DNA of 64,000 nt from a virus. The notes under the pieces were generated by a model, which was given only the letters and a program-made list of their open reading frames with translations, made no database searches and had not been told where the DNA came from. Position 1 is the first letter of the stretch. Each line of letters opens with the position of its first letter. Position numbers and translations under genes: made by a program. The stretch lies in UHGV virus genome UHGV-0038496. The stretch is one strand, 5' to 3'. Below, one piece after another: positions 19,270 to 64,000 of this stretch.

Positions 19270-20244
19270 TGTAGAAGTTTCTTGAGTAAATACAACGATC
19301 CTGTAACAGGTGAAGAGAAATATCTCGGTCGTTTCAACTTAGGTGTGGTAAGCCTGAACCTACCTATGATTGCAGCTCGTTCCAAAGCTGAACAGGTAGA
19401 TTTCTTCAAACTGCTTGACGAGTATCTTGAACTGGCGTATGATGCTCATATGGTACGTGTGAACCGTTTGAAAGGCACAAAAGCTGGACAGAACCCGATC
19501 ATGTGGTGTGAAGGTGTTCTGGCTCGTCTTGATCCTAATGAGGAGATTGACAAACTGTTCTACGATGGCTATGCTTCTATAAGCATCGGCTATATTGGTG
19601 TTTATGAAACATGCCAGATCCTTGGCAGAGAAGGCGACAAAAACCTTGCTCTGGGTATCCTCCAGCACATGAAGGATAAATGTGTTGAGTTCAAAGAACG
19701 CAGCAGATTAGGTTTTAGCCTGTACGGCACACCAAGTGAAAATCTCTGCTATAAAGCGGCTACTTGCTTAGACAGGGCGTATCCTGGAGTTCTGGAGCAC
19801 GAAAGGGAATATCTGACTAATTCGTTTCATCAGCCAGTCTGGATCAAGAGCAGTCCTTTCGACAAGTGGGACTATGAAACCGGATTCGCAGCGATCTCCA
19901 ACGGAGGGTTCATAGGTTACGTTGAACTACCTAATTTACGTAACAATCTCGATGCTTTGGAAAAAATTGTTGATTACGGGTACACCCATTTGCCATATTT
20001 CGGCATCAACATGCCTGTTGACCAATGCTTCAAATGTGGCTTCCGTGGGGAATTTTCTGCCACTGCAAAAGGGTTCTGCTGCCCTGAGTGTGGTAACCAT
20101 GACGAAAGTAGCATCAGTGTGATCCGAAGAGTATCAGGCTATCTGTCTGCACCTAATGCTCGCCCATTCAATCGAGGGAAACAATCGGAGGTGTTAGAAA
20201 GGGTTAAACATGTCGGCAACGTAGATTGTTGTAGTATCTGTTAA
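19270..20244 (+). CDS. nrdD: NrdD, exon 3 (glycyl-radical domain)
   Basis: CRSFL ... GRFNLGVVSLNLP ... CFKCGF ... CPECG zinc ribbon and RVSGYL glycyl-radical motif; the three exons total 712 codons. Confidence 0.75.
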   Translation, partial: CRSFLSKYNDPVTGEEKYLGRFNLGVVSLNLPMIAARSKAEQVDFFKLLDEYLELAYDAHMVRVNRLKGTKAGQNPIMWCEGVLARLDPNEEIDKLFYDGYASISIGYIGVYETCQILGREGDKNLALGILQHMKDKCVEFKERSRLGFSLYGTPSENLCYKAATCLDRAYPGVLEHEREYLTNSFHQPVWIKSSPFDKWDYETGFAAISNGGFIGYVELPNLRNNLDALEKIVDYGYTHLPYFGINMPVDQCFKCGFRGEFSATAKGFCCPECGNHDESSISVIRRVSGYLSAPNARPFNRGKQSEVLERVKHVGNVDCCSIC

Positions 20245-36883: not shown

Positions 36884-37594
36884 CTACATTCCATAATCCT
36901 CATCCTGCTTCTGAGCCATTCCATGATAAACTTCCCAGTACTTAGAGGCATACACCATATCCCATTCTTCCTGAGTCACCCATGCAATCATCCCACTGAG
37001 AATGTCTCTCACCTGTTCCCATTCTTCCCTTTGAGCAATAGCCTCTTCCTGTGTTTTGAATGCTTTCGCTATACGTTTTGTAACGGTATGACGAGTGACA
37101 GCAATACTTGCCCTCCAGTAAGTGTACGGGCCATTATGATATTCACTTACCCCACAAATACCAGACTTGTTAGTTTTGTGCATACCACTGTTAGTCATGT
37201 TCTGTAGGCGACTAACCAGTCTGAGATTGTCCAGGTGGTTGTTACCAGGGTCACGATCAATATGGTCAATCTCCATACCTTCCGGGATTGGACCATGATG
37301 CATCACCCAGATAATCCTTGCACCCTGGAGCAGAGTCTGTTTCCCGTCCACCAGCCAGCCTACAACATAGCGACCATCTTTAGCTGCATAGCTACCAGCA
37401 ACAGCCCCCTTCTTCGCATTAGAAGAACGAGTAAATTTATTCCTCAACACACCAAACTCAGCATCATAAACGAAATAGATGCTCCAGTCTGTAGTGTTAT
37501 ACACCTCCTCAAATTTCACCACAACTGTTTTGTTGTGATTGTTCTTCACAGCGTTATCATAATACGCCTGGGCATCAGCCTTGAACTCAAACAT
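36884..37594 (-). CDS. HNH homing endonuclease with AP2-like domain
   Basis: IDHIDRDPGNNHLDNLRLVSRLQN HNH motif; GICGVSEYHNGPYTYWRA AP2-like. Confidence 0.7.
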   Translation of the reverse strand: MFEFKADAQAYYDNAVKNNHNKTVVVKFEEVYNTTDWSIYFVYDAEFGVLRNKFTRSSNAKKGAVAGSYAAKDGRYVVGWLVDGKQTLLQGARIIWVMHHGPIPEGMEIDHIDRDPGNNHLDNLRLVSRLQNMTNSGMHKTNKSGICGVSEYHNGPYTYWRASIAVTRHTVTKRIAKAFKTQEEAIAQREEWEQVRDILSGMIAWVTQEEWDMVYASKYWEVYHGMAQKQDEDYGM

Positions 37595-57192: not shown

Positions 57193-57654
57193 TCAACCCT
57201 TTTTGCAGTACTCCACTACGATCACTCTTATATCAGGAGTCGTGAGGTTGATGATATTCTCTACATGCTCCCACATAAGACCTCCTATACCGCACCCAAT
57301 CTTAGGGATGTAGAACGGTAACGACATACCTTCGAATACCTCATTGACTTGCTCAAAACCTTTCATGATTGAAGAGTAATCAGCATTAGGTCCCGGTCGG
57401 AATTGAGTATACATATTAATACCGTATACAATCCTGTTCTTGGCAAAATGCTCCCAACAAGAGAGTGTGCCCAGCTTGTCTGGATCACCATAAGCAGTCA
57501 TTTTGTCAGTTTCCAACGCTTGAGGAAACTCCCTGACAATTTGTCTTGCTATACCTGCACCCATTGTGTGGAAGCAGTTGCAACCGTGGATTAGATGACC
57601 AGCCCCGCTCTTAAAGATAGAGATTAAATCTCCATTTACAGTACCGATAATCAT
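57193..57654 (-). CDS. macro-domain-like protein (putative ADP-ribose binding/hydrolase)
   Basis: GDLISIFKSGAGHLIHGCNCFHTMGAGIARQI and IPKIGCGIGGL resemble macro-domain glycine-rich motifs. Confidence 0.5.
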   Translation of the reverse strand: MIIGTVNGDLISIFKSGAGHLIHGCNCFHTMGAGIARQIVREFPQALETDKMTAYGDPDKLGTLSCWEHFAKNRIVYGINMYTQFRPGPNADYSSIMKGFEQVNEVFEGMSLPFYIPKIGCGIGGLMWEHVENIINLTTPDIRVIVVEYCKKG

Positions 57655-58977: not shown

Positions 58978-59448
58978 TTAGTTGAACACTTTAGTGGCTA
59001 TGTAAAAATCTGGGCCATGAACTTTTGGAGGCTCACTGATACAAAGTATAGCTGAACCTACCTTAATGTAGTAGAACAGACTAAACTCACCTTTGAACTT
59101 ACGCCACTGTGCAACACAAGTTTGCTCATAACGATCAAGAATCTTGAAATAATCATCCAGACAAGCATCTTCTGGGATAATTATTGTAGGCATAAACTTG
59201 TTGTGACCGCAGCAACAGTTCATAGTCTGCAAACCTGCTGCCCACAGACTGACCAGCCGTTTAGCCATACACTTATCAACTGCGATAGTGCGTTGTTCAG
59301 TACCATCCATCCGTTTTGTACGAAGACGTTTAGGAACTTCCAGAATAACATTAGGGTGCTTAGCACCCTTCACTTTCTTGTTGTAAGATTTGCATTTACA
59401 CATGTGGTGTACCTCTGCTTTGTGGGAAGGCATCAGGCTAAAGCCCAT
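58978..59448 (-). CDS. hypothetical Cys/His-rich protein
   Basis: HHMCKCK ... CCCGHNK. Confidence 0.4.
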   Translation of the reverse strand: MGFSLMPSHKAEVHHMCKCKSYNKKVKGAKHPNVILEVPKRLRTKRMDGTEQRTIAVDKCMAKRLVSLWAAGLQTMNCCCGHNKFMPTIIIPEDACLDDYFKILDRYEQTCVAQWRKFKGEFSLFYYIKVGSAILCISEPPKVHGPDFYIATKVFN

Positions 59449-60071
59449 TCAAGGTGCTCTTTCATTTTGTCACCCCAACCGTTGACAACAGCGTCAACAC
59501 GCGTCCAATCCGTGCAACTCTGATCGTAAGGAGTATCCATCAGAATAGTGCTTCCGGTGTGAGAATCTTTCCGAGAAGGAAATGCTTCTATGCGGTCATC
59601 GATGAGCACGTCCCACTCAAAATTTATCTTCTCCTGCATGTCTTTCACACGGATCAGTTCATTCTCGTGCCTGTCCCCGTGGCCTCCCCATTTTATCTCC
59701 AGAAAAGGACACCATCTGTTGATGAAATCAAATTTATTGACATGCTGTTTGTGGCTTAAAGACCCAGTTAAAAACCAGATGATGGCTCCTTCGTCATGTA
59801 GCCACTTAATAGTGTCAACAGCACCAGGCAACGGCTCAAGGTTGTCATAGATGCCGCCTAACTTCCAGAAAAGCCTTAAGTCTCTCTTGTAGCATTCAGG
59901 AAAGTATTTTGTTAGGTCGTAGTAGAAACGCATCTGTGGATTCTGTGGCGGCAGAAAGACGTTAATGGGCAGACCAGTCCTTTTCTGACACCAGTCTAAC
60001 CATGCACGACCAGAATCAACAAAAGTAAGGTCCACATCTACAGCCACCACCTTGCCAATAAACTTTTTCAT
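59433..60071 (-). CDS. HAD-superfamily phosphatase (5'-nucleotidase-like), paralog of 14700-15302
   Basis: VDVDLTF motif I, YDLTKYFPE, VLIDDR; ATG at 60071 with GAGAGG RBS. Confidence 0.5.
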   Translation of the reverse strand: MKKFIGKVVAVDVDLTFVDSGRAWLDWCQKRTGLPINVFLPPQNPQMRFYYDLTKYFPECYKRDLRLFWKLGGIYDNLEPLPGAVDTIKWLHDEGAIIWFLTGSLSHKQHVNKFDFINRWCPFLEIKWGGHGDRHENELIRVKDMQEKINFEWDVLIDDRIEAFPSRKDSHTGSTILMDTPYDQSCTDWTRVDAVVNGWGDKMKEHLEWALA

Positions 60072-60081
60072 GGAATACCTC

Positions 60082-60336
60082 TCACAAACGTTCCAAACGG
60101 AACATGATTTTGAAAGCATAATCACGAACAGTTATGCCTAAACTTTCTAACCTGCAAAGTGTGTACTCAGAAATTTTAATGCTGATATTGTTTTTCATCA
60201 CTTCCCGCTGCCCATTGACCATATCAGTCAGTGCTTCACGGATAGCTTGGTAAGTCCGTGCAAAACGATAACCCCGATCAAGAGCTTCTTCCACTGTCAA
60301 CTGTTTGCGTGCTTTGATAATATCTTGTTTAATCAT
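60082..60336 (-). CDS. hypothetical protein
   Basis: ATG at 60336. Confidence 0.4.
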   Translation of the reverse strand: MIKQDIIKARKQLTVEEALDRGYRFARTYQAIREALTDMVNGQREVMKNNISIKISEYTLCRLESLGITVRDYAFKIMFRLERL

Positions 60337-60398
60337 GATGGTAGTCCTTATCTTTCTCTTAGTGGTCGCATTATATCCTAAAATTTTTCTCTTGTCAA

Positions 60399-60423
60399 TA
60401 AAAAAGGCCACCCGAAGGTGGCC
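60399..60423 (-). terminator. rho-independent terminator (minus strand)
   Basis: GGCCACC-cgaa-GGTGGCC hairpin with T-run on minus strand. Confidence 0.6.
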
Positions 60424-60486
60424 TTGTCGTTACACATCCCAGTTTTCTTCGTTGAACATGGCTAGAATCCTCTGTAAGTCATTGAT

Positions 60487-61740
60487 TTAGAAGGGGATAT
60501 CATCATCAAAGGCCCACTTTGTCGGATTAGGTTCCCCCTCTTCGATAGGTGGAGCATCTACAGTATTCTGCTGAGGCTCCGGTTGTGGTTCTGGTTTCTG
60601 TTCCGGCACAGGTTCCTGTTTGGCTTCCTGTTTAGGAACAGCAGTTGTGCTGCCAGTTTTGATCCACTTATACAAAGGTTCAGCCAGATTTACCAGAACG
60701 TTATTGGCTTCAGCTTTGATATCCTTGAACAGACAATCAAGATTCTGTAGGTTGTTGATGTTAACACGGCGACATGCGTTAAGTACAGCGTTACCTACAG
60801 TTGCCCCAACGGCATCCTCTTCATTCCCTGTTGCCTTAGCATACTCCATTTTGAGGTCAATTGTCAAGGTGTGGAGTTGCATTGCGATACCTAAATCTGT
60901 CGTACTGCCCGGATTCAATCCACGATCCAGAAGGATTTGCATTGCATTAAGAGCATGACCAGTGCTCACACCAATAGGGTCGTAAGTTGATTTACGAGGT
61001 GTTTTGTTTTCCAGTGGTGGATATGCTTTAAAACCACTTAAAACGTTACCTGCTTTATCACATACAGCTGCAACACGACCACCTACAACCAGTTCTTTCA
61101 GCTGATTCGGGTTGTTGACAACCATCACACCGACACCGATCTTCTGGTCATCAACGGTTACCGATTTACCATCGATAGCTGTGATAGTGCCATAGATGCG
61201 TAAAACGTCATTAGCCCCTTTCTGAGCAGGTTTTTGTTGGTTGCCTTGTGGTTGTTTACCCTGACCCTGTTTAGGCTGTTGTTGGCCTTTCTGCTGCGCT
61301 TTAGGAGCACTTGCAGGTACTTCACCAGTCCCTAACACAACAATTTTAGCCAGAGAGCCTTTGTAATAGGTCTTACCGTTGTACTCGTTGGATTTGAGAG
61401 GGATGTTAACAATCCAGCCCGGTACTACAGTTTCCCATTTGTCATTAATCTTAATGCTAACAGAATCCTGATGACCTGGTTTCAGGAGTTTATCACCCAT
61501 GCTAACCCACATCTCTTCACCACCCTGGATCAGTTTGTCGTTCTCATCCAGTTCAGCGATCAGAAGAGCAATCGTATGCGAGGATTCGATTTTCTTACCT
61601 TGCCACGTAGTGGTTTTGATACCAGTTTCAGGATCAGCCCCTTTGATAGGTTTGATACTCACCCGTTTGATGATACCGTGAGCCATGAGGATAGTTTCAC
61701 GAGGATTCATCGGGTTTTTAAATTCTTGTACAACGCTCAT
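60487..61740 (-). CDS. SSB-like protein with host-SSB-type C-terminal tip (DDDIPF)
   Basis: C-terminus FDDDIPF identical to the E. coli SSB tip; Q/P/G-rich linker; AAGGAGA RBS. Confidence 0.55.
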   Translation of the reverse strand: MSVVQEFKNPMNPRETILMAHGIIKRVSIKPIKGADPETGIKTTTWQGKKIESSHTIALLIAELDENDKLIQGGEEMWVSMGDKLLKPGHQDSVSIKINDKWETVVPGWIVNIPLKSNEYNGKTYYKGSLAKIVVLGTGEVPASAPKAQQKGQQQPKQGQGKQPQGNQQKPAQKGANDVLRIYGTITAIDGKSVTVDDQKIGVGVMVVNNPNQLKELVVGGRVAAVCDKAGNVLSGFKAYPPLENKTPRKSTYDPIGVSTGHALNAMQILLDRGLNPGSTTDLGIAMQLHTLTIDLKMEYAKATGNEEDAVGATVGNAVLNACRRVNINNLQNLDCLFKDIKAEANNVLVNLAEPLYKWIKTGSTTAVPKQEAKQEPVPEQKPEPQPEPQQNTVDAPPIEEGEPNPTKWAFDDDIPF

Positions 61741-62132
61741 TATTTGTCTCCTTCGGTTTGTTGTGGTTGCTCTGCTTCTTGTTGCTGATCACCAGCCTGG
61801 AAGCCAACTTTGATTAAGGTATCCTGTACTTTAGCCAGTAAGCCCAGTGCAAAATTGCAGGTTCCTACCAGAGCCAGGATATCATCCCGGTTGCGAGCTA
61901 CCCAACCTAAAGCATAGTCTAAGCGTCTGTAATTTGGTTCTTCAACCAGTGCCTGGAAGAGTCGATCAGCATCTTGTTGCTTCATGACTTCGGTAAGGTT
62001 GGAGAAGAAGGAAGAGAGAACAGCCAGCAAAGCCACCTGATCTCGTGATAACCCTAAGAATACAGCTTCTTGAGGTTGTTCTTCGTTTGGCACGTTCATT
62101 GCCGCCGTTTGTTGATCGTTCATTTGTTCCAT
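61740..62132 (-). CDS. hypothetical protein
   Basis: Gln/Glu-rich termini. Confidence 0.4.
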   Translation of the reverse strand: MEQMNDQQTAAMNVPNEEQPQEAVFLGLSRDQVALLAVLSSFFSNLTEVMKQQDADRLFQALVEEPNYRRLDYALGWVARNRDDILALVGTCNFALGLLAKVQDTLIKVGFQAGDQQQEAEQPQQTEGDK

Positions 62133-63765: not shown

Positions 63766-64000
63766 TTGGCTTCTCCAACTGGAATTCTTAACTGGAATAT
63801 TGCGTTCTCTACCCAACCACGGAGATAAATATACTCTACAACCTCCTCTGTTGTCAAGTCTTTTATTTTCTCATCAATGCCAACATCGTTGTGGTAGTCC
63901 CAGTCGGCATCAATTTCCCACAATTGGTACACAGATGTACCATCTTCTTCGTAACGCTGCCGTACGCAAAAAGATCCTTCAAAACCTGCAACCCGCTCGT
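63762..64000 (-). CDS. hypothetical acidic protein, 5'-partial (start beyond window end)
   Basis: Open minus-strand frame to window edge; stop at 63762-63764. Confidence 0.35.
   Translation of the reverse strand, partial: ERVAGFEGSFCVRQRYEEDGTSVYQLWEIDADWDYHNDVGIDEKIKDLTTEEVVEYIYLRGWVENAIFQLRIPVGEAK

Follow-up and report, generated by a model that had tools for sequence, protein, structure and literature searches.

Escherichia phage RudolfGeigy (Bas52, MZ501102), a Vequintavirus, carries the closest described relative of the gene considered here, Bas52_0087 (QXV84166.1). A preprint posted on bioRxiv on 30 April 2026 (10.64898/2026.04.29.721553) reports that Bas52 escapes DRT10, a defence system comprising a UG17 reverse transcriptase, SLATT and a non-coding RNA, by acquiring D252V or Y351C in Bas52_0087. 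In the same work a genetic result in Bas52 indicated that the gene is required for DRT10 activation, and the wild-type protein supplied in trans was shown to strengthen the restriction, with no triggering without infection. Expressed alone, Bas52_0087 has no effect on the viability of Escherichia coli. Host exonuclease I (ExoI, SbcB) dampens DRT10, and its dosage modulates the system. Using Phold and AlphaFold2, the authors predicted Bas52_0087 to be similar to a single-stranded DNA (ssDNA)-binding protein (SSB), with two oligonucleotide/oligosaccharide-binding (OB) folds, noted its FDDDIPF tip, and proposed a model in which it competes with or displaces SbcB (10.64898/2026.04.29.721553). The present analysis concerns the orthologue of this gene in the virus genome UHGV-0038496, of which a stretch of 64,000 nucleotides (hereafter the window) was analysed. 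This SSB-like gene lies on the minus strand at 60487..61740 and probably encodes the phage's own ssDNA-binding protein, one of a non-canonical build.

Two well-known proteins serve as points of comparison. E. coli SSB has one OB fold per chain and forms a tetramer through it. In phage T7, gp4 and gp2.5 bear paired acidic tails ended by phenylalanine, which dock on the phage polymerase. In the window protein, as in E. coli SSB (PF00436), a disordered linker leads to the tip FDDDIPF, which is identical in the two. It differs in the absence of OB-domain sequence homology, in its length (417 versus 178 amino acids), in the linker that precedes the tip (P/E-rich and acidic versus G/Q/P-rich), and in having two different predicted OB folds per chain together with a predicted four-helix bundle. 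With T7 gp2.5 it shares an OB fold, an acidic Phe-ended tail and, as inferred for the window protein, a replisome of the Pol A plus gp4 type; it carries the host SSB C-terminal motif (SSB-Ct) instead of the T7-specific tail, and an extra OB fold and the helical bundle in addition. The resemblance to gp2.5, which comes from the acidic aromatic-ended tail and the Pol A/gp4-type replisome of the relatives, is functional only: no sequence or profile match to gp2.5 / DUF2815 was found with Pfam. The window protein is outside the PF00436 and gp2.5 families by sequence and shares with them the OB fold and the logic of a linker followed by an acidic tail.

Bas52_0087 and the window protein are 62% identical over the full length (E 1e-179). 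The orthology is also apparent from the same coupled upstream gene and the same neighbourhood. The two proteins share the domain order and the FDDDIPF tip, and differ by the 38% sequence divergence and by a longer first linker in the window protein. An SSB-like phage protein with the host tip has therefore already been reported, in April 2026, for a 62%-identical orthologue, and the window case confirms and extends that report. What the present analysis adds is evidence on the folds at domain level, the short-form relatives, a measure of how strongly the tip is conserved, the finding of no other SSB in a relative, and the endonuclease-made alleles in which the tip is masked; both DRT10 escape sites are also mapped to a helical bundle of orphan type. 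Two further publications proved irrelevant: Vequintavirinae and SSBs appear in unconnected passages of the retron Eco2 paper, and in the phage Jab paper 'SSB' belongs to the name of a phage.

An AlphaFold2 model built on a 59-sequence alignment contains three confident domains and two disordered segments, with predicted local distance difference test (pLDDT) values below 50 for each of residues 142-177 and 370-417. The parts of the gene are as follows.

60487..61740, minus strand: SSB-like coding sequence (417 amino acids plus stop) from the list of open reading frames (ORFs); a PHROG 4477 member, orthologue of Bas52_0087 and of rV5 ORF 214
61318..61740, minus strand: N-terminal OB fold of SSB type with long beta hairpins, residues 1-141; all-beta, pLDDT 83-92
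61210..61317, minus strand: linker 1, residues 142-177, disordered, basic, Q/K/G/P-rich, net charge +6; pLDDT <50, conservation 0.36
61009..61209, minus strand: second, compact OB-like barrel, residues 178-244; pLDDT 83-87
60646..60987, minus strand: four-helix bundle, residues 252-365; pLDDT 87-94
60517..60645, minus strand: linker 2, residues 366-408, disordered, P/E/Q-rich, acidic; from pLDDT <50, composition and conservation of 0.33
60490..60516, minus strand: acidic tip WAFDDDIPF, residues 409-417; from identity with 1eqq, conservation of 0.86 and the C-termini of 58 homologues

The second barrel bears an invariant R222 and an F237-K238-x-Y240 motif, and the helical bundle has invariant H262, N265, H290 and G316 and a nearly invariant D254. 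At the structural level the predicted N-terminal domain turned out to be an SSB-type OB fold. One target, 3e0e, was aligned differently in two structure searches, over 63 amino acids at 1.9 Å in one and over 79 amino acids at 3.1 Å in the other, so the matches of the full model are to be assigned to the middle barrel, which brings the number of OB folds in the protein to two. A structure prediction aimed at OB folds had been proposed as a check in the initial annotation; it yielded two of them, in agreement with the preprint. Foldseek against the Protein Data Bank (PDB) gave no match at E <= 0.001; no informative similarity came up for the helical bundle, which has no known relative detectable in this search. 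The bundle has been proposed to be an oligomerisation interface (10.64898/2026.04.29.721553).

The domains do not always diverge in step. Relative to the window protein, the homologue P0041 has 45% identity in the N-terminal OB fold, 99% in the second and 56% in the helical bundle, and P0028 has 95%, 99% and 58%, respectively. Judging from these sequences, this mosaicism suggests recombination between domain-coding segments inside the gene.

The C-terminus is the best conserved part of the protein. The product ends in ...EGEPNPTKWAFDDDIPF (longer form ...PIEEGEPNPTKWAFDDDIPF), with a TAA stop directly after, so that the stop codon adjoins the tip codons and the tip of the window phage is free. 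The last seven residues, FDDDIPF, are those that end E. coli SSB in PDB entry 1eqq (...SNEPPMDFDDDIPF). That the DNA encodes a 417-residue protein with exactly this host tip, as first noticed from the letters alone, is borne out, the ORF being on the minus strand; the plus-strand translation of 60487..61740 is full of stops. The Q/P/G-rich linker that had been placed just before the tip has to be corrected: the actual linker, residues 366-408, is acidic and P/E/Q-rich (11 P, 8 E and 6 Q, net charge -5), and the Q/K/G/P-rich stretch is linker 1, which sits between the two beta domains. Conservation was measured as the mean frequency of the commonest residue in 22 non-redundant family members with <80% mutual identity. 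It amounts to 0.86 for the tip (last nine residues), 0.60 for the middle domain, 0.51 for both the N-terminal and the helical domain, 0.36 for linker 1 and 0.33 for linker 2. The tip is thus the most strongly conserved element of the family. It is retained in homologues with identity as low as 27%, and in most members, those of clades at 27% identity among them, the end is exactly DFDDDIPF, the proteobacterial SSB-Ct. Variants among the relatives (FEDVPF, WDESIPF, FCDDIPF) keep an acidic-x-PF pattern. A chance origin of the tip was considered and is ruled out by its conservation across the family, the highest of any region of the protein.

Not all relatives have a free tip. A conserved extension of about 15 residues past the tip (DDDIPF-AP[IV]GLQY...; APVGLQYGKSRIHAL) is present in 12 of the 58 homologues. 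It is caused by an insertion of ~640 bp placed precisely at the final codon of the SSB-like gene. The insertion encodes a Zn-finger endonuclease of 207 amino acids, which matches PHROG 1035 'endonuclease VII' at E 5.7e-40 and, more weakly, HNH, and its 3' end restores the original ...TTTTAA. Related endonuclease ORFs stand at the same junction in three clades, one of them at ~27% protein identity.

L006 3640-4460, L008 2928-3542 and L007 3217-3660: EndoVII/HNH-type endonuclease inserts (147-207 amino acids, three loci)
L009 (rV5, DQ832317.1) 1372-2128: endonuclease insert locus of rV5

This looks like repeated homing into conserved tip-coding DNA, which appears to be the homing site of the endonuclease. 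At least 27 GenBank records contain the junction, and 32 contain the endonuclease at 95-99% identity. The masked allele occurs in about a quarter of the sequenced rV5-like phages, including the BASEL phages MaxBurger and EmilHeitz. In rV5 itself, ORF 214 (ABI79279.1) ends in ...DFCDDIPFAPVGLQYGKSRIHAL and is followed by ORF 213, 'endonuclease VII'; this protein combines a 15-residue endonuclease-derived extension with a degenerate tip, FCDDIPF, whereas the window protein has a free and perfect one. No endonuclease insertion is present in the window, where 60404-60489 represents a clean, uninterrupted allele. Read-through or frameshifting was also considered as a source of the extension: for the window it is rejected by the clean stop and the terminator, and in the relatives the insertion explains it. 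The terminal Phe sits buried in typical SSB-Ct pockets, where a basic lip provides the anchor for its alpha-carboxyl (PMC10164576). It follows that the masked alleles should be impaired for canonical docking.

In relatives the gene is part of the replication gene block. In Bas59 and Bas52 the orthologue is located ~3 kb downstream of the primase/helicase and DNA polymerase genes and is co-oriented with them; by analogy, the corresponding genes of the window phage would lie past position 64000. Among the proteins named in the rV5 genome paper are a polymerase of the Pol A type, a primase/helicase like T7 gp4, a PIF1/RecD helicase and a ligase; nowhere does the paper speak of an SSB. No feature named SSB is found among the 231 features of the complete Bas52 annotation. 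A phmmer search with E. coli SSB against all stop-to-stop segments of the window and of Bas52 gave no match, and a Pfam scan of 60 Bas52 hypothetical proteins (>=95 amino acids, outside the structural module) revealed no SSB, gp32 or gp2.5-type domain. In the Bas52 genome the PHROG 4477 protein is the only SSB candidate for the T7-type replisome.

Given such a replisome, the tip may be aimed elsewhere than at the host. The protein would then be a real SSB whose tip serves mainly the phage's own replication proteins as in T7, the identity with the host tip being secondary or a convergence on a generic acidic-aromatic motif. The T7-like replication set (Pol A polymerase, gp4-like primase/helicase) favours this, and so do the tip variants of the relatives, which keep acidic-x-PF and not the exact host sequence. 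The Bas52 primase/helicase (bas52_0075, MZ501102.1 67612-69690) also ends in an acidic tail, ...GFEDDETPF (longer form ...SDPVPGFEDDETPF), and is the sole other replication protein with an acidic aromatic-ended C-terminus in the Bas52 scan. However, most tips of the family are exactly DFDDDIPF, a much narrower pattern than 'acidic plus Phe', and the sole genetic link so far, made through DRT10, is to ExoI/SbcB, a host client of the SSB-Ct. Masked alleles should moreover impair docking on phage partners too, provided that the terminal Phe plays the part it has in T7. This T7-like aim of the tip, which is compatible with an SSB role, is a possibility that we regard as tentative.

OB folds are also found in proteins of recombination, and the gene product could be a recombination mediator or a single-strand annealing factor that works through its OB folds, either RecO-like or with the annealing role of gp2.5. 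The Bas52 annotation names no recombinase of the RecA/UvsX, RecT or Erf type, and it does contain EndoVII, a 5' exonuclease and a DnaQ-like exonuclease, which leaves an annealing activity without an assigned protein. Yet the likeness to RecO is limited to the generic OB fold, with a Z score equal to those of dozens of SSB and RPA matches, and Foldseek found no match between the helical bundle and the helical domain of RecO. RecO, besides, binds the SSB-Ct and does not carry one. A mediator or annealing factor seems quite unlikely.

The initial annotation had offered two roles, a phage SSB or a decoy that sequesters host SSB partners. A decoy or competitor would titrate host SSB-interacting proteins, for instance ExoI, shielding the ends of phage ssDNA or disabling host repair, and its OB-like domains would be a mere scaffold. 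A tip that is host-identical and more conserved than any other element fits such a role, as do the preprint's model of SbcB competition or displacement and the effect of ExoI dosage on DRT10. Nevertheless, Bas52_0087 alone is harmless, though deletion of the host SSB-Ct is lethal (PMC10164576), and many viable phages carry alleles with a masked tip. The family also conserves two OB domains, in which R222, F237, K238 and Y240 are invariant; they weigh against a pure decoy, which would not need them. The phage replisome would also be left with no other SSB found for it in the Bas52 scans or the rV5 paper. Of the two suggested roles the decoy is therefore the less likely one, and it appears very unlikely.

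Both residues at which Bas52 escapes DRT10 are conserved in the window protein (D252 corresponds to D254, and Y351 to Y357).

60979..60981, minus strand: D254 codon, the D252V escape site of Bas52_0087; from pairwise alignment, nearly invariant column
60670..60672, minus strand: Y357 codon, the Y351C escape site of Bas52_0087; from pairwise alignment

Both escape mutants are missense, as expected for an essential gene. D254 is an escape site, and its change from D to V is tolerated by the phage. This is a hint that the conserved polar set D254/H262/N265/H290, with G316 in addition, may bind a partner or a metal and is not there for structure alone. These observations can be put together in a bolder way. 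The tip could be a hijack handle that competes for ExoI and other SSB clients and is guarded by DRT10, masked alleles would alter the sensitivity to defence, and the bundle would be a new module for partner binding or oligomerisation and the element that is really sensed. If this were true, MaxBurger, EmilHeitz and rV5 would be natural tip-masked variants with a changed sensitivity to such defences. We consider this combination unlikely.

The most likely reading is that the protein is the phage's own SSB. The two predicted OB folds, the position within the replication block in relatives, the finding of no other SSB in a relative and the term 'SSB-like' used in the preprint all argue for the first of the two roles suggested at the outset. 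The SSB-like tail, in which a disordered linker precedes a highly conserved acidic tip, points the same way, as do the SSB label that two GenBank records give to short-form members and the acidic tail of the Bas52 primase/helicase, which recalls the pairing seen in T7 gp4 and gp2.5. Several points weigh against it. Outside the tip, no sequence-level homology to any known SSB family was detected by Pfam, phmmer, profile searches or hhalign, and ssDNA binding by PHROG 4477 members is itself inferred. The DRT10 escape sites fall in the helical bundle, outside the OB folds and the tip, so DRT10 may be sensing something other than ssDNA binding or docking of the tip. Another SSB was looked for in the window and in the 63%-identical relative Bas52, and the remaining genome of this phage lies outside the window. 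Finally, a free tip is not needed for viability, as at least 27 rV5-like phages, rV5 included, have 15 residues after it; the weight that had been laid on the tip from the beginning is justified by its conservation but not by the viable phages that carry it masked.

According to the proposed mechanism, ssDNA made by the phage's T7-type replisome, which consists of a Pol A polymerase and a gp4-like primase/helicase, would be coated by the OB folds, perhaps with help from the basic linker. Self-association or contact with a partner would fall to the helical bundle, and the flexible acidic tail would present the SSB-Ct motif. This motif could dock into host SSB-interacting proteins (ExoI/SbcB, RecQ, PriA, the chi subunit) and/or into replisome proteins of the phage. 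Phage ssDNA intermediates would thereby be plugged into the host SSB interactome or be made to compete for it. What is presumed here is that the protein binds ssDNA, that it oligomerises by way of its bundle and that its tip docks on such partners.

The PHROG 4477 family most likely fills the gap left by the missing SSB in the annotation of rV5-like phages. It would represent a build of SSB (OB, OB, helical bundle, tail) for which no link to known SSBs is seen by sequence methods. The tip would connect phage replication with the host SSB interactome and with the ExoI-dampened DRT10, and the natural tip-masked alleles offer a way to probe its purpose. The rV5-like and related phages (Vequintavirinae, Stephanstirmvirinae) are widely isolated and have been proposed for therapy and biocontrol.

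The assignment to PHROG 4477, a family of "unknown function" that occurs in rV5-like and related phages, comes from a full-length match in which residues 1-417 align with profile positions 1-393 (E 7.5e-122). A Pfam scan of the protein at E <= 1 gave no match, and phmmer against the PDB returned noise only. When the family profile was compared with the PDB, E. coli SSB was matched through the tip alone (E 0.026), together with myosin constructs bearing an SSB tag. Alignment of the N-domain profile with the OB domain of E. coli SSB by hhalign gave a probability of 0.1%, i.e., no homology, and there were no hits to the bacterial SSB profile PF00436; the OB domain is not recognisable by a sequence profile. 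The kinship to known SSBs is one of shared fold, not of a demonstrable common family.

A word-indexed search found 79 homologues, the lowest at 26% identity, and a profile search of 1.84 billion representatives matched 241 of them. With tblastn, full-length homologues were detected in 346 phage records, the best at ~63% identity being from rV5-like Vequintavirus phages of E. coli and more distant ones from phages of Klebsiella, Cronobacter, Pectobacterium, Serratia and Erwinia; bas52_0087 is among these tblastn matches. The gene is labelled 'hypothetical protein' in 30 of 30 among the matches listed. About 20 GenBank records, MG0656xx, are named Campylobacter phage (e.g., MG065635.1, 'Campylobacter phage C12') with C. 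jejuni as the stated host. They carry rV5-like genes, the endonuclease-interrupted allele included, at an identity equal to that of E. coli phages, and their Campylobacter host assignment looks doubtful.

The family also has short-form members of 260-320 amino acids, which belong to Phapecoctavirus, Justusliebigvirus (phi92 gp156) and related phages (Stephanstirmvirinae, metagenomic phages). They match PHROG 4477, as the window protein does, and have in common with it the beta domain at the N-terminus (the OB fold), the helical domain (the bundle), a charged linker that is disordered, and an acidic tip of the form ...[DE]x[IV]PF. Unlike it, they are devoid of linker 1 and the second (middle) OB barrel. 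Their tips vary (DEDVPF, DDQDVPF, DDPIPF, DDGAPF, DDDIPW). Two GenBank records name short-form members 'single-stranded DNA-binding protein'.

The expression signals around the SSB-like gene are those of a compact transcription unit.

61748..61751, minus strand: Shine-Dalgarno GGAG, 7 nt upstream of the SSB-like ATG, read from the sequence
60404..60425, minus strand: intrinsic terminator, a hairpin with a 9-bp stem (6 GC pairs) plus a T-run, 62 nt past the SSB-like stop
61740..62132, minus strand: upstream gene of 130 amino acids, PHROG 7310, translationally coupled (TAATG); acidic ends, Q/E-rich

The 417 codons start with an ATG that overlaps the TAA of the preceding gene (TAATG, 61738-61742), and the transcription unit that holds the gene ends at the terminator. 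Given the Shine-Dalgarno sequence, the overlap and the terminator, the SSB-like gene looks real. The PHROG 7310 gene holds the same place in Bas52 (bas52_0086), Bas59, rV5 and the window-like clade, and is not found there in the Serratia-type locus L007; its product may be a functional partner of the SSB-like protein. Directly past the terminator, at 60370-60398 on the minus strand, there is a sigma-70 promoter of perfect consensus (TTGACA, 17-nt spacer, TATAAT; 12/12), which opens the next minus-strand transcription unit.

As for the source phage, the window has a GC content of 0.43 and is collinear with rV5-like genomes. At the DNA level it is well separated from them: a megablast of the SSB-like gene against GenBank phages gave no match, and ~6% of a 24-kb flank aligns, at ~82% identity. 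A scan of the window for tRNA genes found none. Two genes with recognisable domains stand just downstream of the SSB-like gene.

59433-60125, minus strand: NT5C-type 5'-deoxynucleotidase
57193-57654, minus strand: Macro-domain protein (also PHROG 335 'phosphatase')

The plus-strand arm of the window encodes a DNA ligase, a DnaQ-like exonuclease, NrdD, PhoH and ClpP. The NrdD ORF at 19192-20244 (plus strand) covers just positions 263-562 of the Pfam model, and the anaerobic ribonucleotide reductase gene is apparently split in the window, as in Bas52, whose coding sequence is a join of two segments. HNH_3 endonuclease genes that stand alone occur at two other places in the window, at 9581-10315 on the plus strand and at 36884-37594 on the minus strand.

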